Shown here: in pieces, positions 6,964-62,423 of the stretch
Numbering within the stretch: position 1 is the first letter of the stretch
How the letters are laid out: every line of letters begins with the position of its first letter
Assembly (NCBI RefSeq): GCF_053078305.1
Contig: NZ_CP166879.1
Length of the DNA stretch: 64,000 nt
Reading direction: 5' to 3' (one strand)
Position numbers and translations under genes: made by a program
The notes under the pieces: generated by a model
Told to the model about the DNA's origin: nothing
The model's input: the letters and a program-made list of their open reading frames with translations, nothing else
Database searches by the model: none

Positions 6964-7066
6964 TGCCGGATGCGGCGCGAACGCCTTATCCGGCCTACAA
7001 AAGTTTGTAAATTCAATAAATTGCAGAATTCACGTAGGCCTGATAAGCGAAGCGCATCAGGCATTT
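6964..7066. repeat. REP/BIME element pair
   Basis: gccggatgcggcg...cttatccggcctac and inverted gtaggcctgataagcg...gcatcaggc motifs. Confidence 0.85.
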
Positions 7067-12042: not shown

Positions 12043-12127
12043 GTAGGCAGGATAAGGCGTTTACGCCGCATCCGGCATTTGAGCAGGATGCCTGATGCGA
12101 CGCTGATAGCGTCTTATCAGGCCTACA
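12043..12127. repeat. REP/BIME element pair
   Basis: gtaggcaggataaggcgtttacgccgcatccggca ... gcctgatgcgacgc...cttatcaggcctac. Confidence 0.85.
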
Positions 12128-13943: not shown

Positions 13944-14120
13944 TTCCATCACCTGTCGGCATATTTTTAAGGGCTGATGCGTAATTCCTCAATGGAGCAT
14001 CAGTGTTGATGGAAACGAAGATAGACATTCATTTAATCAATAAAAGTGATCAAAACCACATCAATTGAAACACTGTTTTATTTTTATCGGATCATTGTTT
14101 TTATTTTGAAATTGATCACA

Positions 14121-14150
14121 AAAAAACCACCGCCATTGGCGATGGTTCAT
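14121..14150 (-). terminator. sodA intrinsic terminator
   Basis: Near-palindromic ccaccgccattggcgatgg flanked by A6/T6 runs, 3' of sodA. Confidence 0.6.
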
Positions 14151-14202
14151 TTTTTAAGCTGATATGCGGCGTAAACGCCTCATTGCAGCAGACGGCAAAT
14201 GA

Positions 14203-14823
14203 TTATTTTTTCGCCGCGAAACGGGCCGCTGCTTCGTCCCAGTTCACCACGTTCCAGAACTCTTTGATGTAGTCCGGGCGGCGGTTCTGGAATTTCAGGT
14301 AGTAAGCATGTTCCCACACATCCAGGCCCAGAATCGGGAAGCCGGATACGCCAGAAATAGCTTCACCCATCAGCGGGGAGTCCTGGTTAGCAGTAGAAAC
14401 CACCGCCAGTTTATCGCCTTTCAGCACCAGCCATGCCCAGCCGGAACCAAAGCGGGAAGCTGCCGCTTTCTCAAATTCTGCTTTGAAGTTATCTACGGAA
14501 CCGAAATCACGTTCGATAGCCGCTTTCAGGTCACCCTGCAGGGTGGTGCCTTTTTTCAGACCTTTCCAGAACAGGCTGTGGTTAGCGTGACCGCCAGCGT
14601 TGTTGCGCAGTACGGTTTTCTTGTCTGCTGGAAGCTGGTCCAGTTTGGTGATCAACTCTTCAACCGGCAGGTTGGCAAATTCTGGCAGGCTTTCCAACGC
14701 CGCGTTGGCGTTGTTGACGTAGGTCTGATGGTGTTTGGTGTGGTGGATTTCCATGGTCTGCTTATCGAAGTGCGGTTCCAGGGCATCGTAAGCATACGGC
14801 AGGGATGGCAGGGTATAGCTCAT
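14203..14823 (-). CDS. sodA: Manganese superoxide dismutase
   Basis: 206-aa protein from [20 protein letters not shown] start. Confidence 0.97.
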
Positions 14824-15107
14824 ATTCATCTCCAGTATTGTCGGGCGGCCGATTGTTAATGCCGCGTAAGCAGTTGGTTCATTATAGTTAATTAAATGAT
14901 ATTGAAAATGATTATCAATGCCGTACTTTTCGTAAGGGTATGGTTTTGCAGGAAAATGCCCGAGATGTGAAGCAAATCACCCACTTAATGCCGTGATTGC
15001 CAGTAAATCGACAACGGCGGCAACAGGCGAAAGGTTAATCGACAGCACGATTTTTACACTCATCTCGTCGGAGATGTGACGCGACGAAAAATGATGAGGA
15101 TAAGAAG

Positions 15108-16142
15108 ATGAGTAACGCGATTACGATGGGGATATTTTGGCATTTGATCGGCGCGGCCAGTGCAGCCTGTTTTTACGCTCCGTTCAAAAAAGTAAAAAAA
15201 TGGTCATGGGAAACCATGTGGTCAGTCGGTGGGATTGTTTCGTGGATTATTCTGCCGTGGGCCATCAGCGCCCTGTTACTACCGAATTTCTGGGCGTATT
15301 ACAGCTCGTTTAGTCTCTCTACGCTGCTGCCTGTTTTTCTGTTCGGCGCTATGTGGGGGATCGGTAATATCAACTACGGCCTGACCATGCGTTATCTCGG
15401 CATGTCGATGGGAATTGGCATCGCCATTGGCATTACGTTGATTGTCGGTACGCTGATGACGCCAATTATCAACGGCAATTTCGATGTGTTGATTAACACC
15501 GAAGGCGGACGCATGACGTTGCTCGGCGTTCTGGTGGCGCTGATTGGCGTAGGGATTGTAACTCGAGCCGGGCAGTTGAAAGAGCGCAAGATGGGCATTA
15601 AAGCCGAAGAGTTCAATCTGAAAAAAGGGCTGGTGCTGGCGGTGATGTGCGGCATTTTCTCTGCCGGGATGTCCTTTGCGATGAACGCCGCAAAACCGAT
15701 GCATGAAGCCGCTGCCGCACTTGGCGTCGATCCACTGTATGTCGCTCTGCCAAGCTATGTTGTCATCATGGGCGGCGGCGCGATCATTAACCTCGGTTTC
15801 TGTTTTATTCGTCTGGCAAAAGTGAAGGATTTGTCGCTAAAAGCCGACTTCTCGCTGGCAAAACCGCTGATCATTCACAATGTGTTACTCTCGGCACTGG
15901 GCGGGTTGATGTGGTATTTGCAATTCTTTTTCTATGCCTGGGGCCACGCCCGCATTCCGGCGCAGTATGACTACATCAGTTGGATGCTGCATATGAGTTT
16001 CTATGTATTGTGCGGCGGTATCGTCGGGCTGGTGCTGAAAGAGTGGAACAATGCAGGACGCCGTCCGGTAACGGTGTTGAGCCTCGGTTGTGTGGTGATT
16101 ATTGTCGCCGCTAACATCGTCGGCATCGGCATGGCGAATTAA
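15108..16142 (+). CDS. rhaT: L-rhamnose:H+ symporter
   Basis: 344-aa polytopic membrane ORF recognised as RhaT. Confidence 0.95.
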
Positions 16143-16987
16143 TCTTTCTGCGAATTGAGATGACGCCACTGGCTGGGCGTCATCCCGGTTTCCCGGGTAA
16201 ACACCACCGAAAAATAGTTACTATCTTCAAAGCCACATTCGGTCGAAATATCACTGATTAACAGGCGGCTATGCTGGAGAAGATATTGCGCATGACACAC
16301 TCTGACCTGCCGCAGATATTGATTGATGGTCATTCCAGTCTGCTGGCGAAATTGCTGACGCAAAACGCGCTCACTGCACGATGCCTCATCACAAAATTTA
16401 TCCAGCGCAAAGGGACTTTTCAGGCTAGCCGCCAACCGGGTAATCAGCTTATCCAGCAACGTTTCGCTGGATGTTGGCGGCAACGAATCACTGGTGTAAC
16501 GATGGCGATTCAGCAACATCACCAACTGCCCGAACAGCAACTCTGCCATTTCGTTAGCAAACGGCACATGCTGACTACTTTCATGCTCAAGCTGACCGAT
16601 AACCTGCCGCGCCTGCGCCATCCCAACGCTACCTAAGCGCCAGTGTGGTTGCCCTGCGCTGGCGCTAAATCCCGGAATCGCCCCCTGCCAGTCAAGATTC
16701 AGCTTCAGCCGCTCCGGGCAATAAATAATATTCTGCAAAACCAGATCGTTAACGGAAGCGTAGGAGTGTTTATCGTCAGCATGAATGTAAAAGAGATCGC
16801 CACGGGTAATGCGATAAGGGCGATCGTTAAGTACATGCAGGCCATTACCGCGCCAGACAATCACCAGCTCACAAAAATCATGTGTATGTTCAGCAAAGAC
16901 ATCTTGCGGATATCGGTCAGCCACAGCGACTGCCTGCTGGTCGCTGGCAAAAAAATCATCTTTGAGAAGTTTTAACTGATGCGCCAC
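16139..16987 (-). CDS. rhaR: AraC-family rhamnose regulator RhaR
   Basis: AraC-type HTH C-terminus. Start placed at GTG giving 282 aa (MAHQLKLL...); the alternative ATG at 17077 gives 312 aa and overlaps rhaS. Confidence 0.85.
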
Positions 16988-17060
16988 CGTGGCTACCTCG
17001 GCCAGAGAACGAAGTTGATTATTCGCAATATGGCGTACAAATACGTTGAGAAGATTCGCG

Positions 17061-17897
17061 TTATTGCAGAAAACCATCCCGTCCCTGACGAATATCACGC
17101 GGTGACCAGTTAAACTCTCGGCGAAAAAGCGTCGAAAAGTGGTTACTGTCGCTGAATCCGCAGCGATAGGCGATGTCAGTAACGCTGGCCTCGCTGTGGC
17201 GTAGCAGATGTCGGGCTTTCATCAGTCGCAGGCGGTTCAGGTAACGCTGAGGCGTCAGTCCCGTTTGCTGCTTAAGCTGTCGATGTAGCGTACGCAGTGA
17301 AAGAGAAAATTGATCCGCCACGGCATCCCAATTCACCTCATCGGCAAAATGGTCCTCCAGCCAGGCCAGAAGCAAGTTGAGACGTGATGCGCTGTTTTCC
17401 AGGTTCTCCTGCAAACTGCTTTTACGCAGCAAGAGCAGTAATTGCATAAACAAGATCTCGCGACTGGCGGTCGAGGGTAAATCATTTTCCCCTTCCTGCT
17501 GTTCCATCTGTGCAACCAGCTGTCGCACCTGCTGCAATACGCTGTGGTTAACGCGCCAGTGAGACGGATACTGCCCATCCAGCTCTTGTGGCAGCAACTG
17601 ATTCAGTCCGGCGAGAAACTGAAATCGATCCGGCGAGCGATACAGCACATTAGTCAGACACAGATTATCGGTATGTTCATACAGATGCCGATCATGGTCG
17701 CGCACAAAACAGACCGTGCCACCGGTGATGGTATAGGGCTGCCCATTAAACACATGAATACCCGTGCCATGTTCGACAATCACAATTTCATGAAAATCAT
17801 GATGATGTTCAGGAAAATCCGCCTGCGGGAGCCGGGGTTCTATCGCCACGGACGCGTTACCAGACGGAAAAAAATCCACACTATGTAATACGGTCAT
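17061..17897 (-). CDS. rhaS: AraC-family rhamnose regulator RhaS
   Basis: 278-aa ORF recognised as RhaS. Confidence 0.95.
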
Positions 17898-20910
<3,013 letters not shown>

Positions 20911-20915
20911 ACACT

Positions 20916-21335
20916 GCCGGATGCGGCACAAGTGCCTTATCCGGCCTACAGGTCGGCAACAGTTGTAGGCCTGATAAGACGCGACATCGCATCAGGCATT
21001 GATTGCCGGATGCGGCACAAGTGCCTTATCCGGCCTACAGGTCGGCAACAGTTGTAGGCCTGATAAGACGCGACAGCGTCGCATCAGGCATTGATTGCCG
21101 GATGCGGCACAAGTGCCTTATCCGGCCTACAGGTCGGCAACAGTTGTAGGCCTGATAAGACGCGACAGCGTCGCATCAGGCATTGATTGCCGGATGCGGC
21201 ACAAGTGCCTTATCAGGCCTACAGGTCGGCAATAGTTGTAGGCCTGATAAGACGCGACAGCGTCGCATCAGGCATTGATTGCCGGATGCGGCACGAGTGC
21301 CTTATCCGGCCTACAGGTCGTGCATCCGACAACAC
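20916..21335. repeat. Tandem REP/BIME array, about 5 copies of a ~92-bp unit
   Basis: gccggatgcggcacaagtgccttatccggcctacaggtcggcaacagttgtaggcctgataagacgcgacagcgtcgcatcaggcattgatt recurs starting at 20916, 21005, 21097, 21189 and 21281. Confidence 0.9.
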
Positions 21336-21357
21336 CGAATTTACAGGAACACAGAAC

Positions 21358-22182
21358 ATGCAAAATATTACCCAGTCCTGGTTTGTCCAGGGAATGATCA
21401 AAGCCACCACCGACGCCTGGCTGAAAGGCTGGGATGAGCGCAACGGCGGCAACCTGACTCTGCGCCTGGATGACGCCGATATCGCACCATATCACGACAA
21501 TTTCCACCAACAACCGCGCTATATCCCGCTCAGCCAGCCCATGCCTTTACTGGCAAATACACCGTTTATTGTCACCGGCTCGGGCAAATTCTTCCGTAAC
21601 GTCCAGCTTGATCCTGCGGCTAACTTAGGCATCGTAAAAGTCGACAGCGACGGCGCGGGCTACCACATTCTTTGGGGGTTAACCAACGAAGCCGTTCCAA
21701 CTTCTGAACTTCCGGCTCACTTTCTCTCCCACTGCGAGCGCATTAAAGCCACCAACGGTAAAGATCGGGTGATCATGCACTGCCACGCCACCAACCTGAT
21801 CGCCCTCACCTATGTACTTGAAAACGACACCGCGGTCTTCACTCGCCAACTGTGGGAAGGCAGCACCGAGTGTCTGGTGGTATTCCCGGATGGCGTTGGC
21901 ATTCTGCCGTGGATGGTGCCCGGCACGGACGAAATCGGCCAGGCGACCGCACAAGAGATGCAGAAACATTCGCTGGTGTTGTGGCCCTTCCACGGTGTGT
22001 TCGGTTCCGGACCGACGCTGGATGAAACATTCGGTTTAATCGACACCGCAGAAAAATCAGCACAAGTATTAGTGAAGATTTATTCGATGGGCGGCATGAA
22101 ACAGACCATCAGCCGTGAAGAGTTGATAGCGCTCGGCAAGCGCTTCGGCGTTACACCACTAGCCAGTGCGCTGGCGCTGTAA
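21358..22182 (+). CDS. rhaD: Rhamnulose-1-phosphate aldolase
   Basis: Track ORF (331 aa) runs through the REP array; trimmed to [12 protein letters not shown] start giving 274 aa. Confidence 0.95.
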
Positions 22183-22191
22183 GGAGCAAAC

Positions 22192-22506
22192 ATGATCCGC
22201 AAAGCCTTTGTCATGCAGGTTAACCCCGACGCCCACGAAGAGTATCAGCGTCGGCATAACCCCATCTGGCCGGAGCTGGAAGCAGTGTTGAAATCTCACG
22301 GTGCGCATAACTACGCCATTTACCTCGACAAAGCGCGTAATCTGCTGTTTGCCATGGTAGAGATTGAATCTGAAGAACGGTGGTATGCGGTAGCCAGCAC
22401 TGAAATCTGCCAACGTTGGTGGAAATATATGACCGACGTTATGCCAGCTAACCCGGATAACAGCCCGGTGAGTAGCGAGCTGCAAGAAGTGTTTTACCTG
22501 CCTTAA
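22192..22506 (+). CDS. rhaM: L-rhamnose mutarotase
   Basis: 104-aa ORF recognised as RhaM (YiiL). Confidence 0.93.
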
Positions 22507-22546
22507 TGAGTTGCGGTGCCGGAAAATATCCAGCACCGCGCCTTCA

Positions 22547-23941
22547 TCAGAAGAAGTATTTAAAGCGAACGCGTGCGCCGTAACGGTCATCAGTATCATC
22601 ACCGTGTTTTTTATCACCGTCGCTATCCAGAATGGAGTAATACGTCCCGAGGTAAATATTAAAGTTCTCCATATCCATCACATTAGCGAACTGATAAGAC
22701 GCATGAATGGTGTGAATGGAGTACGTCCCTTCATCATCAATCCAGCAGTCGTTATCACAAACTACACCGCTGAATTCATCAATCTTATTGTGCGCGTAGA
22801 TATAACCGAGCTCGAAACGTTTCCACAGCGCGTTAATCCCGGCAGTGAAATCTTTCTCATTATTAGCATCTAAATAGGCGGTATTAAGATTAACCACAAT
22901 GCCATTGTCCGGATCCGTTTTCAGGCCGTTCCAGGTCATGCTCATCCCATAGCCGGTACGATCGGACTGATCGACAAAATTACCCTTGCTATCGGTATAA
23001 CCATAAGCATTATTTACCACGTTCGCTTCCATCGCTGCGGAAACGGTGAATTCTTCCGTCGGCGACCAGGCAATTACTGGGCGCAGATAAGCAACATTTT
23101 TCTGCTGCTCCATATCGCGTCCATGATAATTACCGTCATTATATAAAGATGTTCCGTCTTCAAGTAACGTATTTAATTCAAAATACCAGTTATCGAGTTG
23201 TTTGCTGACGAGGAAATTACCGCCAGCGTTAGAGCGCCCGCGGCCCTCTTTCATCATATAGATATAACCGCTGCCATCGTCATAAAGATCGTTCGCAGTA
23301 TTACCGGAATGTTCAACAAAGGTATCCTGATTCAGCGGGAACATATCGTAGGCTTCAAAACGGCCTACTTTGACCTTCCAGTCGTTTTCTTTACCAAAGA
23401 AGAATACCGCATCATCGATATTTACTGAACCGTGCATATCACCCAGCGGTTGTGCGGAGAACCCGGCGAAATAACCGTTGTCCATCTTTCGCATACCGTC
23501 AAAACCTAACAGAATACGACCATTGAGATTCCACTGTTCATTAGTGGGATCGCTATTCACATCAGCGTTGGTCATTGCCAGCAGGCCATGATTACTTTCC
23601 GCATCCATATTAAATTCTACGTCGCCGTAGATTTTTAAATCGCCATAACCTGAAAGCAAAAGATTAGGTGAGGTGGCATTTTTCTTTGCAGATTCCGCCG
23701 TTGCCTGTCCATTTACCGGCGTATTGCCCTGAGCGGCCTTAATTTCGCGGATCTCAGCGGCTTGTTGTGTCTGCAGCTGTTTAACCTGGCTCTCTGCTTT
23801 TGCCGCCCGCATTTCTGCCGCTTCCAGGCGTTCTTCCAGCAATGCCATGCGTTGTTCCAGCGTTAAATGCTGTGTTTTTGCCATACCGGTACTACATGCC
23901 AATAATAAACCGATGGCTAAAGATAATGTCGATTTTTTCAT
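22547..23941 (-). CDS. Putative outer-membrane carbohydrate-type porin with N-terminal coiled coil
   Basis: 464-aa ORF; N-terminal signal peptide (MKKSTLSLAIGLLLACSTGMA); heptad-like LEQRMALLEERLEAAEMRAAKAESQVKQLQ segment; Y/G/N/D-rich amphipathic body ending in aromatic ...RFKYFF as expected of a beta-barrel OMP; not recalled at this position in K-12. Confidence 0.6.
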   Translation of the reverse strand: MKKSTLSLAIGLLLACSTGMAKTQHLTLEQRMALLEERLEAAEMRAAKAESQVKQLQTQQAAEIREIKAAQGNTPVNGQATAESAKKNATSPNLLLSGYGDLKIYGDVEFNMDAESNHGLLAMTNADVNSDPTNEQWNLNGRILLGFDGMRKMDNGYFAGFSAQPLGDMHGSVNIDDAVFFFGKENDWKVKVGRFEAYDMFPLNQDTFVEHSGNTANDLYDDGSGYIYMMKEGRGRSNAGGNFLVSKQLDNWYFELNTLLEDGTSLYNDGNYHGRDMEQQKNVAYLRPVIAWSPTEEFTVSAAMEANVVNNAYGYTDSKGNFVDQSDRTGYGMSMTWNGLKTDPDNGIVVNLNTAYLDANNEKDFTAGINALWKRFELGYIYAHNKIDEFSGVVCDNDCWIDDEGTYSIHTIHASYQFANVMDMENFNIYLGTYYSILDSDGDKKHGDDTDDRYGARVRFKYFF

Positions 23942-24418
23942 TATTTACGTTCCCTGAAATAAAGGAGGCCCTACGCTTTCCAAAAGGAATACGTATATAG
24001 AGAAATATAAAGCGTGCACTTTCGAATTTTTAATCCAACTTCAGCAGGCCGATGGATAGTATCCCGCCGCATAATATGAGTAAATCCGCTGATTTCCTGG
24101 AACGTGAGGAATATAACAATAGTGCCGTTTTTAACTAAATATCGTAAAAAATATTAGATATGATTCAAACTGACTCATAAGCCACAAATATAAATAACGT
24201 GGCAGCAAAATATCCGCGACAGTTAAACATTCACAAAATCATTAAATAATAACTCTTTATTCACAAGATTTATTTTACCTACTAATATGTGCCTTACGCC
24301 GCAAAATTTATCCTTCACTCTGCTTTATATTGTCACGACTTCACGACATATCCGCGCTCATCACAAACCCGCCCCGCTATTACAATTAACTGAAATATTT
24401 TTTCATGGAGTCCGATTA

Positions 24419-24865
24419 ATGGCAGCTCTTACTGCAAGCTGTATTGACCTGAATATTCAGGGCAATGGCGCTTATTCCATTCTGAAGCAGTTAGCGACAA
24501 TGGCGTTACAAAACGGTTTTATCGCCGACTCACACCAGTTCCTGCAAACCCTGCTGCTGCGCGAAAAAATGCACTCCACCGGTTTTGGTTCTGGTGTCGC
24601 CGTGCCGCACGGTAAAAGCGCCTGCGTTAAACAACCGTTCGTGTTATTCGCCCGCAAAGCGCAGGCTATTGACTGGAAAGCCAGCGACGGCGAAGACGTC
24701 AATTGCTGGATCTGCCTCGGCGTGCCGCAAAGCGGCGAAGAGGATCAGGTCAAAATCATCGGCACACTGTGTCGCAAAATTATCCACCAGGATTTTATTC
24801 ACCAACTGCAACAGGGCGACGCCGACCAAGTGCTTGCCTTGTTAAATCAAACCCTCAGCTCATAA
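24419..24865 (+). CDS. frvA: PTS fructose-like EIIA component
   Basis: Track ORF 192 aa; trimmed to MAALTASCIDL start giving 148 aa; conserved phosphorylation His in GVAVPHGK. Confidence 0.9.
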   Translation: MAALTASCIDLNIQGNGAYSILKQLATMALQNGFIADSHQFLQTLLLREKMHSTGFGSGVAVPHGKSACVKQPFVLFARKAQAIDWKASDGEDVNCWICLGVPQSGEEDQVKIIGTLCRKIIHQDFIHQLQQGDADQVLALLNQTLSS

Positions 24866-24875
24866 GGAAGTGGCG

Positions 24876-26327
24876 ATGGAGTCATCCTTACGTATTGTCG
24901 CGATCACCAACTGCCCCGCCGGGATCGCTCACACCTACATGGTGGCGGAAGCCCTGGAACAGAAAGCCCGTTCTCTCGGCCATACCATAAAAGTGGAAAC
25001 TCAAGGGTCCAGCGGCGTTGAAAACCGCTTATCCAGCGAAGAGATTGCCGCTGCCGATTACGTGATTCTCGCCACCGGGCGTGGCCTGAGCGGTGACGAT
25101 CGCGCACGGTTTGCCGGGAAAAAAGTTTATGAGATTGCCATCTCCCAGGCGCTGAAAAATATCGATCAGATTTTCAGCGAATTACCGACAAACTCGCAGC
25201 TTTTTGCCGCAGATAGCGGCGTGAAGCTTGGCAAACAGGAAGTACAAAGCGGCAGCGTGATGAGCCACCTGATGGCGGGCGTCTCTGCGGCGCTGCCGTT
25301 TGTCATCGGCGGTGGTATCCTGGTGGCGCTTGCCAACATGCTGGTGCAGTTCGGTTTGCCGTATACCGATATGTCGAAAGGCGCGCCGTCGTTTACCTGG
25401 GTAGTTGAATCCATCGGTTACCTTGGCTTCACCTTTATGATCCCCATCATGGGCGCTTATATTGCCTCGTCGATTGCCGATAAACCGGCTTTCGCTCCGG
25501 CGTTTCTGGTTTGCTATCTGGCGAACGACAAAGCGCTGCTCGGCACCCAGTCGGGTGCGGGATTCCTCGGCGCGGTGGTGCTGGGGCTGGCGATTGGCTA
25601 TTTCGTCTTCTGGTTCCGTAAAGTCCGTCTTGGCAAAGCATTACAACCGCTGCTCGGTTCAATGCTGATCCCGTTCGTTACTCTGCTGGTTTTCGGCGTG
25701 CTCACTTACTACGTTATCGGACCGGTGATGTCCGACCTCATGGGCGGGCTACTGCACTTCCTCAATACCATTCCTCCATCAATGAAGTTTGCGGCAGCGT
25801 TTCTGGTCGGTGCGATGCTGGCGTTCGATATGGGCGGCCCCATCAATAAAACCGCCTGGTTCTTCTGCTTCTCACTGCTGGAAAAACACATTTATGACTG
25901 GTACGCCATCGTCGGCGTTGTCGCGCTGATGCCGCCCGTCGCGGCGGGTCTTGCGACGTTCATTGCGCCCAAACTGTTTACCCGACAGGAAAAAGAGGCT
26001 GCCAGTAGTGCCATTGTGGTCGGTGCCACAGTCGCAACCGAACCGGCTATTCCTTACGCTCTGGCAGCTCCGTTGCCGATGATTACCGCCAATACGCTGG
26101 CGGGCGGTATTACCGGCGTGCTGGTGATCGCTTTCGGAATCAAACGTCTGGCACCTGGTTTGGGTATCTTTGACCCGCTGATCGGCCTGATGTCGCCGGT
26201 GGGTTCGTTTTATCTGGTGCTGGCGATTGGCCTCGCGCTGAACATTTCATTCATTATCGTCCTGAAAGGATTGTGGTTACGCCGCAAAGCGAAAGCCGCG
26301 CAACAGGAGCTTGTCCATGAACATTGA
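24876..26327 (+). CDS. frvB: PTS fructose-like EIIBC component
   Basis: 483-aa protein from ATG at 24876 (track starts at an upstream GTG); AAGGAAG Shine-Dalgarno; polytopic. Confidence 0.9.
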   Translation: MESSLRIVAITNCPAGIAHTYMVAEALEQKARSLGHTIKVETQGSSGVENRLSSEEIAAADYVILATGRGLSGDDRARFAGKKVYEIAISQALKNIDQIFSELPTNSQLFAADSGVKLGKQEVQSGSVMSHLMAGVSAALPFVIGGGILVALANMLVQFGLPYTDMSKGAPSFTWVVESIGYLGFTFMIPIMGAYIASSIADKPAFAPAFLVCYLANDKALLGTQSGAGFLGAVVLGLAIGYFVFWFRKVRLGKALQPLLGSMLIPFVTLLVFGVLTYYVIGPVMSDLMGGLLHFLNTIPPSMKFAAAFLVGAMLAFDMGGPINKTAWFFCFSLLEKHIYDWYAIVGVVALMPPVAAGLATFIAPKLFTRQEKEAASSAIVVGATVATEPAIPYALAAPLPMITANTLAGGITGVLVIAFGIKRLAPGLGIFDPLIGLMSPVGSFYLVLAIGLALNISFIIVLKGLWLRRKAKAAQQELVHEH

Positions 26328-27387
26328 GTTACTGCAACAGTTGTGCGAAGCCAGCGCCGTCAGCGGCGATGAACAGGAAGTTCGCGACATTCTGATAAAC
26401 ACGCTGGAACCTTGCGTTAATGAGATCACCTTTGATGGTCTGGGCAGCTTTGTTGCCCGTAAGGGAAATAAAGGTCCAAAAGTTGCCGTTGTCGGGCATA
26501 TGGATGAAGTCGGCTTTATGGTCACCCACATCGACGAGAGCGGTTTTCTGCGCTTTACCACCATTGGCGGCTGGTGGAATCAGTCGATGCTCAACCACCG
26601 GGTAACAATACGCACACACAAGGGAGTGAAAATCCCTGGTGTGATTGGTTCCGTAGCGCCTCATGCGTTAACGGAAAAGCAAAAGCAACAACCGCTGTCA
26701 TTTGATGAGATGTTCATTGATATTGGCGCGAACAGTCGCGAAGAAGCGAAAAAACGCGGCGTGGAAATTGGTAATTTTATTAGCCCGGAGGCCAATTTTG
26801 CCTGCTGGGGCGAAGATAAAGTAGTCGGCAAGGCGCTGGATAACCGCATCGGCTGCGCGATGATGGCGGAGCTACTACAGACAGTAAATAACCCAGAAAT
26901 TACGCTGTACGGCGTCGGCAGCGTGGAAGAAGAAGTTGGGCTACGCGGGGCACAAACCTCGGCTGAACACACTAAACCGGATGTGGTGATCGTGCTGGAT
27001 ACCGCCGTCGCGGGCGATGTTCCGGGCATTGATAACATTAAATACCCGCTGAAACTGGGCCAGGGGCCGGGGCTGATGCTGTTTGACAAGCGCTACTTCC
27101 CCAACCAGAAACTGGTAGCAGCGTTAAAAAACTGTGCCACGCAGAATGATTTACCGCTGCAATTTTCCACCATGAAAACCGGAGCGACGGATGGCGGGCG
27201 CTACAACGTGATGGGCGGCGGGCGTCCGGTTGTCGCGCTGTGTCTGCCAACTCGTTATCTGCACGCCAACAGCGGTATGATTTCAAAAGCCGATTATGAT
27301 GCTCTGCTCACGCTGATACGGGGTTTTCTGACGACCTTAACTGCGGAGAAAGTCAACGCGTTTAGCCAGTTCCGTCAGGTGGATTAA
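26317..27387 (+). CDS. frvX: M42-family aminopeptidase/cellulase-like protein
   Basis: 356-aa protein from ATG at 26317 (track starts at TTG); AGGAG Shine-Dalgarno. Confidence 0.9.
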   Translation: MNIELLQQLCEASAVSGDEQEVRDILINTLEPCVNEITFDGLGSFVARKGNKGPKVAVVGHMDEVGFMVTHIDESGFLRFTTIGGWWNQSMLNHRVTIRTHKGVKIPGVIGSVAPHALTEKQKQQPLSFDEMFIDIGANSREEAKKRGVEIGNFISPEANFACWGEDKVVGKALDNRIGCAMMAELLQTVNNPEITLYGVGSVEEEVGLRGAQTSAEHTKPDVVIVLDTAVAGDVPGIDNIKYPLKLGQGPGLMLFDKRYFPNQKLVAALKNCATQNDLPLQFSTMKTGATDGGRYNVMGGGRPVVALCLPTRYLHANSGMISKADYDALLTLIRGFLTTLTAEKVNAFSQFRQVD

Positions 27388-29135
27388 TGCTAAACGAACG
27401 CCAGTTAAAGATTGTCGATCTGCTGGAGCAACAGCCGCGCACGCCTGGCGAGCTGGCGCAACAGACTGGCGTTTCAGGCAGGACCATCCTGCGTGATATT
27501 GACTATCTCAACTTTACCCTTAACGGCAAAGCTCGTATCTCTGCCAGTGGCAGTGCGGGCTATCAGCTGGAAATCTTCGAGCGCCGCAGTTTTTTTCAGT
27601 TGCTGCAAAAGCACGATAACGACGATCGGCTGCTGGCGCTGTTATTACTGAATACTTTCACTCCCCGTGCGCAACTCGCCTCGGCGCTTAATTTGCCAGA
27701 AACGTGGGTAGCAGAGCGTCTGCCCCGCCTGAAACAGCGTTATGAACGTACTTGCTGCCTGGCCAGTCGCCCCGGTTTGGGCCATTTCATTGATGAAACA
27801 GAAGAGAAACGCGTTATCTTGCTGGCGAACTTGCTACGCAAAGATCCGTTTTTAATACCTTTGGCTGGCGTAACACGAGATAACCTTCAGCATTTATCCA
27901 CGGTCTGCGACAACCAACACCGCTGGCCGCTCATGCAGGGTGATTATCTCTCCAGCCTGATTCTGGCGATTTACGCCCTGCGTAATCAACTGACCGATGA
28001 GTGGCCGCAATATCCCGGTGACGAGATAAAACAAATCGTTGAACATAGCGGTCTGTTTCTTGGTGATAACGCTGTAAGAACCCTGACAGGTTTGATAGAG
28101 AAACAGCATCAGCAAGCGCAGGTAATTTCTGCCGATCATGTGCTGGGGTTGCTGCAAAGGGTGCCAGGCATCGCGTCATTGAATATTATTGATACGCAGT
28201 TGGTTGAGAATATTACCGGGCATTTATTACGTTGCCTTGCCGCACCGGTGTGGATTGCCGAGCACCGCCAAAGCAGCATGAATAACCTGAAAGCCGCCTG
28301 GCCTGCGGCCTTTGATATGAGTCTGCACTTTATTACGCTACTGCGAGAACAGCTCGATATTCCTCTTTTCGACAGCGATCTGATCGGTTTGTATTTTGCC
28401 TGTGCGCTGGAACGACATCAAAACGAACGCCAGCCGATCATTTTGCTCTCGGACCAGAACGCGATTGCCACCATTAATCAGCTCGCCATTGAGCGCGATG
28501 TTTTACATTGTCGGGTGATTATTGCCCGTAGCTTAAGCGAGCTTGTTGCCATTCGCGAAGAGATTGAGCCGTTATTGATCATTAACAACAGCCATTATTT
28601 ACTGGATGACGCGGTAAATAATTACATCACCGTAAAAAATATCATTACGGCTGCCGGTATCGAACAAATAAAACATTTTCTGGCGACGGCATTTATTCGC
28701 CAGCAACCGGAGCGTTTTTTCTCTGCCCCCGGAAGTTTTCATTATTCGAATGTACGCGGTGAAAGCTGGCAACATATTACCCGGCAAATTTGTGCGCAAT
28801 TAGTCGCACAACACCATATTACCGCCGATGAAGCGCAACGGATCATCGCCCGCGAAGGCGAAGGTGAAAACCTGATTGTTAATCGCCTCGCCATCCCACA
28901 TTGCTGGAGCGAACAGGAGCGACGTTTTCGTGGATTTTTTATTACCCTCGCCCAATCAGTTGAGGTGAATAACGAAGTCATTAACCATGTCTTGATCGCC
29001 TGCGCCGCCGCCGATGCGCGTCATGAGCTAAAAATATTTAGCTATCTGGCAAGCGTATTGTGTCAGCATCCGGCAGAGGTTATTGCCGGGTTAACAGGAT
29101 ATGAGGCATTTATGGAGTTACTTCACAAGGGGTGA
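27387..29135 (+). CDS. frvR: frv operon transcriptional regulator
   Basis: 582-aa ORF; ATG overlaps frvX stop (ttaATG); N-terminal HTH. Confidence 0.9.
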   Translation: MLNERQLKIVDLLEQQPRTPGELAQQTGVSGRTILRDIDYLNFTLNGKARISASGSAGYQLEIFERRSFFQLLQKHDNDDRLLALLLLNTFTPRAQLASALNLPETWVAERLPRLKQRYERTCCLASRPGLGHFIDETEEKRVILLANLLRKDPFLIPLAGVTRDNLQHLSTVCDNQHRWPLMQGDYLSSLILAIYALRNQLTDEWPQYPGDEIKQIVEHSGLFLGDNAVRTLTGLIEKQHQQAQVISADHVLGLLQRVPGIASLNIIDTQLVENITGHLLRCLAAPVWIAEHRQSSMNNLKAAWPAAFDMSLHFITLLREQLDIPLFDSDLIGLYFACALERHQNERQPIILLSDQNAIATINQLAIERDVLHCRVIIARSLSELVAIREEIEPLLIINNSHYLLDDAVNNYITVKNIITAAGIEQIKHFLATAFIRQQPERFFSAPGSFHYSNVRGESWQHITRQICAQLVAQHHITADEAQRIIAREGEGENLIVNRLAIPHCWSEQERRFRGFFITLAQSVEVNNEVINHVLIACAAADARHELKIFSYLASVLCQHPAEVIAGLTGYEAFMELLHKG

Positions 29136-62334: not shown

Positions 62335-62423
62335 GCCGGATGCGGCGTGAACGCCTTATCCGGCCTACAAAAGCAATATTTTCAACAGGTTTTGTAGGCC
62401 TGATAAGCGTAGCGCATCAGGCA
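62335..62423. repeat. REP/BIME element pair
   Basis: gccggatgcggcgtgaacgccttatccggcctac ... gtaggcctgataagcgtagcgcatcaggc. Confidence 0.85.

Follow-up and report, generated by a model that had tools for sequence, protein, structure and literature searches.

Repetitive extragenic palindromes (REPs) placed between the genes of a polycistronic mRNA can reportedly act as barriers to 3′ exonucleases, an effect that Newbury et al. are said to have demonstrated in 1987 for the one or two intercistronic REPs of malE-malF. By definition, a REP is an imperfect palindrome of 30-40 nt with a GTAG/CTAC foot and a conserved mismatch or bulge in its stem (PMC3333891). In the elements termed BIME-2, y and z2 REPs joined by short linkers form tandem copies whose number differs between strains (Ton-Hoang et al. 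2012, PMC3333891), and such strain-to-strain variation in unit number is a published general property of BIME-2 (PMC3333891). One such array, REP325, comprises 12 Y/Z2 hairpins in the yjdM-yjdN spacer, where it makes the upstream message more stable and attenuates expression downstream (bioRxiv 10.64898/2026.03.23.713779). Deleting REP325 takes the yjdM/yjdN mRNA ratio from 35 to 1, the array produces a ladder of hairpin-terminated RNAs, and it shows a partial sensitivity to bicyclomycin that is confined to the full-length array (bioRxiv 10.64898/2026.03.23.713779). Harris et al. 2026 stress that REP effects depend on context.

The closest described element is found at the same locus in K-12, where EcoCyc annotates the rhaA-rhaD array as REP299a-i (2024 preprint). 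REP299 is the only one of eight stress-responsive REP regions to lie within an operon, rhaBAD, and it is predicted to be associated with a REP transposase (RAYT) and is enriched in exonuclease-protected DNA under stress (2024 preprint). The same array also appears in a survey of DNA gyrase cleavage by Topo-seq in K-12 W3110, with the entry "BIMEs2 3543085-3543486, 401 bp, rhaA>-rhaD>" (Sutormin et al. 2019, PMC6379681, Table DS3). Four cleavage sites were recorded there with ciprofloxacin (Cfx), two with rifampicin plus ciprofloxacin (RifCfx), one with microcin B17 (Micro) and none with oxolinic acid (Oxo) (PMC6379681). Four Cfx sites in 401 bp compare with 0.41 expected (Poisson P = 8.6e-4). 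Gyrase prefers to cut Y REPs, with a BIME-2 signal that is independent of transcription (Sutormin et al. 2019, PMC6379681). The DNA of the K-12 homologue is thus a preferred gyrase cleavage and binding site in vivo. A second K-12 BIME-2, between araA and araD, likewise lies within a sugar-catabolic operon just upstream of its last gene and is a gyrase site; it occupies another locus, is shorter, and is compared here by its table entry alone (247 bp, 3 Cfx sites, "Espeli, Boccard 1997: 2 cuts"; PMC6379681, Table DS3).

We analysed a stretch of 64,000 nucleotides from contig NZ_CP166879.1 of RefSeq assembly GCF_053078305.1, here called the window, in which a preliminary description had placed a REP/BIME array between rhaA and rhaD. 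That placement is borne out by the flanking genes, by the Y and Z2 types of the palindromes and by the catalogued K-12 counterpart. On the plus strand, rhaA (L-rhamnose isomerase, 419 aa; NCBIfam TIGR01748 and NF002203, E about 1e-245) occupies 19651-20910 and ends in a TAA stop codon at 20908-20910, while rhaD (rhamnulose-1-phosphate aldolase, 274 aa; NCBIfam NF002963, E = 4.8e-144) occupies 21358-22182. Between them lies a spacer of 447 bp (20911-21357, plus strand), untranslated and within the rhaBAD transcription unit. The neighbourhood consists of rhaB, rhaA, rhaD and rhaM on the plus strand with rhaS and rhaR divergent on the minus strand, all assigned by NCBIfam models at or far above their curated cut-offs. 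From the sequencing of the rha genes, Moralejo et al. reportedly found promoter activity in 1993 in the rhaB leader only. The array would form part of the rhaBAD mRNA that starts at the rhaB promoter. Our promoter scan returned two promoter-like sites in or near the array against 0.8 ± 0.9 expected, which is not above chance. One plus-strand match would start transcription within rhaD, and a weak minus-strand match at 21389-21362 aims into the array.

Tandem Repeats Finder (TRF) detects one array, at 20915-21320 (period 92, 4.4 copies, 97% matches, 0% indels, score 770), and in a second, independent search the repeats start 89, 92 and 92 bp apart. Read from rhaA, the spacer consists of ACAC, an 89-bp unit (20915-21003), three 92-bp units (21004-21095, 21096-21187 and 21188-21279) and a terminal piece (21280-21320) made of a Y REP and 11 further repeat bases, after which 37 unique bases (21321-21357, plus strand) reach the rhaD ATG. 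These unique bases are largely unpaired in the predicted minimum free energy structure and include CAGGAA, the ribosome-binding site of rhaD, 7 nt ahead of the ATG. TRF and unit parsing together define a BIME-2 tandem array at 20915-21320, with units of 89, 92, 92 and 92 bp and a last, incomplete unit, homologous to REP299a-i of K-12. The preliminary description had counted five copies of about 92 bp; the tandem 92-bp Y/Z2 repeat stands, but it amounts to 4.4 units with nine REPs and not to five full copies, and the end then given, 21335, overshoots the repeat by about 15 nt.

Each unit contains, in order, TGCCGGATGCGGCACAAGTGCCTTATCCGGCCTACA, AGGTCGGCAACAGT, TGTAGGCCTGATAAGACGCGACAGCGTCGCATCAGGCA and TTGAT, that is, two related palindromes in opposite orientation, with a tail-to-tail linker of 15 nt (AGGTCGGCAACAGTT) and a head-to-head linker of 5 nt (TTGAT). 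Four full units and a partial fifth thus hold nine hairpins, in which Y-type REPs (five) alternate with inverted Z2-type REPs (four). Folding, joined for the first by a motif scan, places the Y REPs on the plus strand at 20916-20945, 21005-21034, 21097-21126, 21189-21218 and 21281-21310, and the Z2 REPs on the minus strand at 20969-20997, 21058-21089, 21150-21181 and 21242-21273. The first Y hairpin begins 5 nt past the rhaA stop codon, and the terminal Y, a loop variant carrying GCACGAGTGC, corresponds to the lone Y of the shortest, 82-bp allele described below. The differences between copies that had been quoted earlier are all present: the first copy carries GACATCGC where the others carry GACAGCGTCGC, a 3-bp loss in the Z2 loop, and the last Y carries GCACGAGTGC. 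Two further changes in unit 4, TTATCAGGCC and CAATAG, had been missed.

Predicted on the mRNA strand, an intact Y folds at -19.2 kcal/mol, as does the first Y REP, and an intact Z2 at -20.5 kcal/mol, the value for the second Z2. Two of the nine hairpins are weakened by mutation: the first Z2, which has lost 3 bp from its loop and upper stem, folds at -11.6 kcal/mol, and a C-to-A change at the stem foot of the fourth Y (TTATCAGGC) leaves that hairpin at -13.0 kcal/mol. Over 20890-21375, the predicted RNA fold reaches -248 kcal/mol, compared with -165 ± 7 for shuffled sequences (z = -11.6), far outside what chance would give. Among 63 Y copies from 15 alleles, the top pair of the Y stem is A-U in 44, G-C in 8 and A.C in 10, a distribution that reads as a compensatory change from A-U to G-C with surviving A.C intermediates.

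We then compared these features with the definitions of REP and BIME elements. All nine palindromes are 29-32 nt long and are flanked on the plus strand by CTAC (Y) or GTAG (Z2), the internal bulge is present in the REP folds, and the array lies entirely between the rhaA stop at 20910 and the rhaD ATG at 21358. Inverted Y and Z2 REPs alternate in well-conserved tandem copies with short linkers, and the number of units varies among strains, all as in BIME-2. We considered BIME-1, in which a Y and a Z1 REP flank a long L linker with an IHF site in single copy, and rejected it on the short linkers, the Z2 REPs and the tandem units; the IHF consensus WATCAANNNNTTR has no match in the spacer, which likewise excludes BIME-1. 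Matches to miRNA families in Rfam (E 0.17-0.8) were weak and were dismissed as noise.

The comparison with K-12 is closer still. The rhaA-rhaD spacer of K-12 MG1655 is 450 bp long and contains five Y and four Z2 REPs, so that K-12 and the window agree in locus, flanks, the nine REPs, the 92-bp unit and the linkers, and both carry the C-to-A variant of unit 4. They differ in that the window spacer is 447 bp and its first Z2 has the 3-bp deletion, in the stem top of the first and last Y (GCGCGAGCGC in K-12; GCACAAGTGC and GCACGAGTGC in the window), and in the CAACAG/CAATAG linker variant of units 1-2. We regard it as practically certain that the array is the window's copy of this known E. coli BIME-2. 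Two checks that could have overturned the identification upheld it: the element annotated as REP299 is indeed the rhaA-rhaD spacer array of K-12, and the palindromes align with the Y and Z2 consensus. It is already catalogued, and it represents no new kind of element or mechanism.

REP325 offers a second yardstick, since the Rfam model RF02564 (naRNA4) is a covariance model of one Y-linker-Z2 unit from K-12 REP325, the source of naRNA1-6. All four Z2-Y junctions of the window match it at 64-77 bits, above the gathering score of 59.5, on the minus strand only; those beginning in the second, third and fourth Z2 REPs span 21057-21127 (76.6 bits), 21149-21219 (69.3 bits) and 21241-21311 (74.4 bits). 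On the mRNA strand the model reaches 49-54 bits, under the gathering score. Against REP325, the array Z2 has 2 differences in 38 positions, and the Y departs chiefly at the stem top. Both arrays alternate Y and Z2 REPs in an untranslated spacer inside an operon, with units of 100 bp in REP325 and 92 bp in the window, and the window units pass the gathering score of the REP325-derived model. REP325, however, lies in the opposite orientation relative to transcription and has about 12-13 REPs, compared with nine in the window; its head-to-head linker is 6 nt longer in the Rfam alignment, and its tail-to-tail linker is 17 nt, as against 15 nt, with a different sequence.

These Rfam matches raise the question of whether the array might instead encode minus-strand naRNA4-like small RNAs that bind HU and organise the nucleoid. 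Four matches to RF02564 above the gathering score, all on the minus strand, and the promoter-like match at 21389-21362 pointing into the array are what such RNAs would predict. However, any BIME-2 matches RF02564 on one strand because the model is itself a Y-linker-Z2 unit, so the matches merely reflect the composition of the model; the promoter-like matches are not above chance; and the HU-naRNA4 compaction model was unsupported on re-test (Harris et al. 2026). We therefore consider this explanation very improbable, and the array is better read as a BIME-2 within the rhaBAD transcript.

The open reading frame that runs through the end of the array also required an explanation. The ORF at 21187-22182 (331 aa, TTG start) consists of the 274-aa rhaD and 57 additional in-frame codons (21187-21357, plus strand) that read through unit 4 and the terminal Y, and the preliminary description had called this extension false. 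We concur, and reject the 57-codon stretch as a coding part of RhaD: RhaD started at the ATG aligns through residues 1-273 to positions 1-273 of the 274-position NCBIfam aldolase model, so that the family model begins at the ATG, and the extension varies with copy number. RefSeq annotates rhaD as 825 bp in every genome we fetched.

To place the window among other strains, we searched the spacer and its flanks by megablast against complete E. coli genomes and obtained a match in 5,425 of 5,426. Allele shares were estimated from two systematic samples taken down the ranking, comprising 98 distinct genomes, with classes assigned from the length of the match span and confirmed by sequence in at least one genome fetched per class. 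The resulting frequencies are approximate, as the collection over-represents K-12 derivatives and O157: a single Y REP (spacer 82 bp) in about 21% of the sample, two Y and one Z2 (174 or 184 bp) in about 18%, three Y and two Z2 (263, 266 or 276 bp) in about 16%, four Y and three Z2 (356 bp) in about 3%, five Y and four Z2 (447, 450 or 460 bp) in about 22%, six Y and five Z2 (542 bp) in about 2%, and one Y with a different GC-rich palindromic repeat (241 bp) in about 15%. The comparison of copy number that had been proposed earlier thus reveals a strongly polymorphic locus with one to six Y REPs; arrays that are alike in every strain, which would have told against the preliminary description, are not what is seen. 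The first Y REP keeps its position 4-5 nt past the rhaA stop in all of the E. coli alleles that we examined.

The nine-REP architecture of the window recurs in the finished genomes of K-12 MG1655, O55:H7 RM12579, LF82 and A16. The window itself is absent from this collection of complete E. coli genomes, the nearest of which is about 98.9% identical to it over 14 kb. ECNB21-M121 reproduces the window layout exactly (89+92+92+92+78), down to the 3-bp deletion of the first Z2, a variant also carried by PapM-32-1. As ECNB21-M121 has the identical layout, the five-Y state of the window is neither unique nor suspicious. Tandem 92-bp repeats are difficult for short-read assemblers, and in a short-read contig of an Escherichia sp. 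an array of at least 11 units is broken at the end of an IS3-family element within a Z2 loop, so one might suspect the five-copy state of being an assembly artefact, or, given the in-frame ORF, take the region for a genuine N-terminal extension of RhaD. Against the former stand the finished genomes and ECNB21-M121; against the latter stand the start of the family model at the ATG and the absence of the extension from short spacer alleles. Either is highly improbable, and we continue with the reading of a genuine, untranslated BIME-2.

How the number of units changes is seen from closely related strains. Where O55:H7 RM12579 carries five Y REPs, O157:H7 carries two; the unit in O157 equals unit 4 of O55, including the diagnostic CAGGCC variant, and the flanks differ at 0-1 of 600 positions, so that the O157 allele is an in-register loss of units 1-3. 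Allele sequences such as these show that the array grows and shrinks in register, by one 92-bp Y-Z2 unit per step. Units would be gained and lost through recombination or slippage between units, or through a REP-associated transposase, giving rise to the alleles with one to six Y REPs. Identical neighbouring proteins also accompany different array lengths: the same RhaD protein, WP_001179745.1, occurs beside alleles with one, three and five Y REPs, and WP_001301857.1 (RhaD or RhaA) occurs beside alleles with two and five. Because about 21% of the sample have a single Y and about 15% a different repeat, array length is evidently not strongly constrained.

This freedom lends weight to the view that the array is a near-neutral, semi-selfish DNA repeat of the REPIN/BIME kind, maintained by RAYT and slippage and tolerated in a permissive spacer, with only incidental effects on expression. 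Consistent with such a view, copy number ranges freely from one to six in E. coli, with at least 11 in the Escherichia sp. contig, the single-Y allele is as frequent as the five-Y allele, and identical RhaD or RhaA proteins sit beside different copy numbers; two of the nine window hairpins are weakened by mutation, RNA-seq of LF82 (below) displays no polarity, and REP299 combines a predicted RAYT association with enrichment in exonuclease-protected DNA under stress. Three observations pull the other way. All E. coli alleles examined place the first Y REP at the same point, 4-5 nt past the rhaA stop, most other Enterobacteriaceae have some strongly folding palindromic repeat at this place, which hints at a favoured element or a receptive site, and REP325 has large measured effects in a similar context. 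We treat near-neutrality as a serious possibility, though not as our expectation, and continue with the reading in which the BIME-2 has workings as DNA and as RNA.

The comparison beyond E. coli drew on rhaD loci from 80 other Enterobacteriaceae species, with the rhaA-rhaD spacer measurable in 76 and mostly 15-225 bp long; the species-level collection searched for them yielded no locus from E. coli or Shigella. Salmonella enterica subsp. arizonae and Citrobacter have an inverted pair of REPs of their own in this spacer. Many Enterobacter, Pseudocitrobacter and Lelliottia carry a palindromic repeat of the CCCTCTCCC/GGGAGAGGG type, the family also found in the 241-bp E. coli allele, and in Superficieibacter electus a 50-bp REP is present in about nine direct tandem copies. 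A crude motif test, run without a control from other spacers, places one of these families in 57 of the 76 spacers, and most fold far better than shuffled sequences; we take the pattern as no more than a lead. A further reading would have the spacer selected for some structured RNA, with array length setting the RhaBA:RhaD ratio as a dial that is inherited and mutates fast. We consider it unlikely, and keep it in view because 57 of the 76 species hold unrelated repeats in the spacer, because E. coli alleles step through one to six units, even between O55:H7 and O157:H7, and because rhaD mRNA is uncoupled from rhaBA in LF82.

We next considered what the nine hairpins might do in the rhaBAD mRNA, for which the preliminary description had suggested effects on stability or polarity, a reasonable proposal by analogy with REP325. 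Our literature search joining rhaA, rhaD and repetitive extragenic palindromic found nothing, and we found no published experiment on the rha transcript. The RepRanger supplements make no mention of rha; nor does the text of Harris 2026, whose supplement gives a basal rhaD count only (baseMean about 81), with no rhaA entry in the part searched. For this reason, the steps that concern decay, translation and attenuation rest on analogy: the effects of REP325 are measured, whereas those proposed for the rha array are carried over from it. Relative to the direction of transcription, the rha array and REP325 have opposite orientations, and the REP325 results may therefore not transfer quantitatively.

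The first of these steps concerns mRNA decay. In the mRNA, all nine REPs are predicted to form stable hairpins (-12 to -20 kcal/mol), which would block 3′-to-5′ exonucleases; given such a block, the rhaBA and rhaD(M) segments would differ in stability and their levels would be uncoupled. The arrangement resembles malE-malF in placing REP hairpins between genes of a polycistronic mRNA, although one or two REPs are involved there and nine here. We judge the chances evenly balanced that the transcribed array is a hairpin decay barrier uncoupling rhaBA from rhaD(M).

A second step concerns translation. According to a summary of Liang et al. 2015 in PMC12306157, a REP closer than 16 nt to a stop codon lowers translation by stalling terminating ribosomes. 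The 5-nt gap before the first hairpin of the rha array falls inside this <16-nt zone. With its first hairpin only 5 nt past the rhaA stop, the array might therefore dampen RhaA translation termination; we see this as possible, while leaning against it.

A third step, some Rho-assisted attenuation into rhaD of the kind seen at REP325, is somewhat less likely still. A rival reading would make the array a strong REP325-like intra-operon terminator or attenuator, with rhaD well below rhaBA and a strength that scales with unit number. In its favour, REP325 lowers the downstream yjdN about 8-10-fold and shows Rho dependence only as a full-length array. The sequence, however, offers little for termination to act on. 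A scan of 20500-21800 found no intrinsic-terminator-like site, none of the nine REPs is followed by a T run, so that no GC-rich hairpin is paired with a U tract, and the spacer lacks both a skew of C over G (C/G 0.79-1.05) and any C-rich, G-poor stretch. RhaD is moreover needed stoichiometrically, and a starved aldolase step leads to a build-up of rhamnulose-1-phosphate, which again counts against strong termination.

Expression data from a strain with the same number of REPs bear directly on the matter. The LF82 rhaA-rhaD spacer is 460 bp long and contains nine REPs, as we confirmed by sequence. RNA-seq of LF82 gave RPKM values for rhaB, rhaA and rhaD of 452, 376 and 554 in minimal medium and of 65, 39 and 303 in bile salts (PMC6379400, Table 4). 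With nine REPs, then, rhaD is at or above both rhaB and rhaA in both conditions, which leaves a strong terminator quite unlikely. In this one study, which was not conducted on rhamnose, rhaD is not below rhaBA and behaves as if uncoupled from it, a pattern more in keeping with segment-to-segment differences in mRNA stability than with termination. These data argue against net attenuation into rhaD.

Taken as a whole, our explanation, a known BIME-2 with the workings proposed here for its DNA and RNA, has in our estimation a probability of about 0.85. Its most likely role, by analogy with REP325 and with the K-12 homologue, would be that of stable hairpins in the rhaBAD mRNA forming a decay barrier that separates rhaBA from rhaD, combined with a DNA gyrase site. 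For annotation, we recommend naming the array a BIME-2 (REP299 homologue) and cutting the 331-codon ORF back to the 274-codon rhaD. For the study of such elements, the array is a clear case of in-register BIME-2 copy-number change within an inducible operon. Since natural alleles with one to six units exist, they provide a convenient series for testing REP arrays as stabiliser-terminators, and with them one could examine the recent proposal that REP arrays are dual stabiliser-terminators that may serve as tunable dials of operon stoichiometry.

Copy number in the rhaA-rhaD spacer has changed within E. coli lineages. Comparison of O55:H7 RM12579 (L096) with O157:H7 2571 (L004) showed that the 174-bp O157:H7 spacer is the 450-bp O55:H7 array minus units 1-3, an in-register deletion; 599 of 600 flanking positions agree between these two loci, and a single RhaA protein accession is common to both strains. 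This spacer difference between O157:H7 and O55:H7 could be used as a simple lineage marker. Furthermore, the spacer's unique 3' tail exists in a second version that is 10 bp longer (…AGATCGTACATCCGGCAACAGGCACGGACGTCCAATTAACAGGAAC…), observed in SCU-204, APEC E19019, AST216 and LF82 (L090, L091, L092 and L095, respectively). As this longer tail was found with 2, 3 and 5 Y REPs, copy-number change has occurred independently on two flank haplotypes. Amongst complete RefSeq E. coli genomes, window positions 14000-28000 had no match exceeding ~98.9% over 14 kb.

Not all E. coli spacers are built of Y-Z2 units. Approximately 15% of sampled E. coli genomes carry an alternative 241-bp allele, as in E. 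coli MS 115-1 (L006:612-852), composed of a single Y REP followed by an unlike, GC-rich palindromic repeat (CCCTCACCCCGGCCCTCTCCCTGAAAGGGCGAGGGAG ... GGGGAGAGGGTTAGGGTGAGGGG) that replaces the Y-Z2 units. This repeat may be akin to BoxC/RSA repeats. In Pseudocitrobacter, Enterobacter and Lelliottia (L008, L023, L035, L071), the rhaA-rhaD spacer is likewise occupied by its family. An extended Y/Z2 array lies 5' of rhaD in Escherichia sp. MOD1-EC7003 (L007:1-1078), with at least 11 Y and at least 10 Z2 REPs, a unit count that is unreliable because the assembly is short-read. This contig opens with 62 bp matching the end of an IS3-family element that sits within a Z2 loop; the element is multicopy, with matches in 2,066 of 5,426 E. 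coli genomes.

A comparable arrangement is found in araBAD, where a 247-bp BIME-2 with 3 gyrase sites separates araA from araD (K-12 W3110 66566-66813; PMC6379681 Table DS3); analogous to the rhaBAD array, it directly precedes the last gene of its sugar operon. Elsewhere in the window, a motif scan located three additional isolated REPs, two Y-type and one Z2-type, all on the plus strand (6965-6994, 12090-12122 and 62335-62364).

Published expression data are available for E. coli LF82, whose rhaA-rhaD array contains nine REPs (L095:8828-9287). With bile salts, LF82 rhaB and rhaA mRNA dropped 7- to 10-fold and, despite the nine-REP array, rhaD mRNA was still high, going from 554 to 303 RPKM (PMC6379400 Table 4). 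This RPKM pattern points to a rhaD segment in LF82 that has its own stability or its own transcription.

Beyond E. coli, we drew rhaD loci from a species-level genome collection, which yielded none from E. coli or Shigella. A palindromic repeat, either REP-like or CCCTCTCCC-type, was present by a crude motif test in the rhaA-rhaD spacers of 57 of 76 species (L008-L086), and most had a fold z of −4 or below relative to shuffles. The 466-bp Superficieibacter electus spacer (L037), grouped with a 225-bp rhaA-rhaD spacer (L033), contains about nine ~50-bp REP copies in direct tandem and the same orientation (GTAGGCCCGGTAAGCGCAGCGCCACCGGGCAGG...), plus one Y-like REP, an architecture that differs from the alternating BIME-2. 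Judging from counts that cover rhaA-rhaD spacers alone, this spacer may be, across species, either a hot spot for repeats or a structured spacer maintained by selection.
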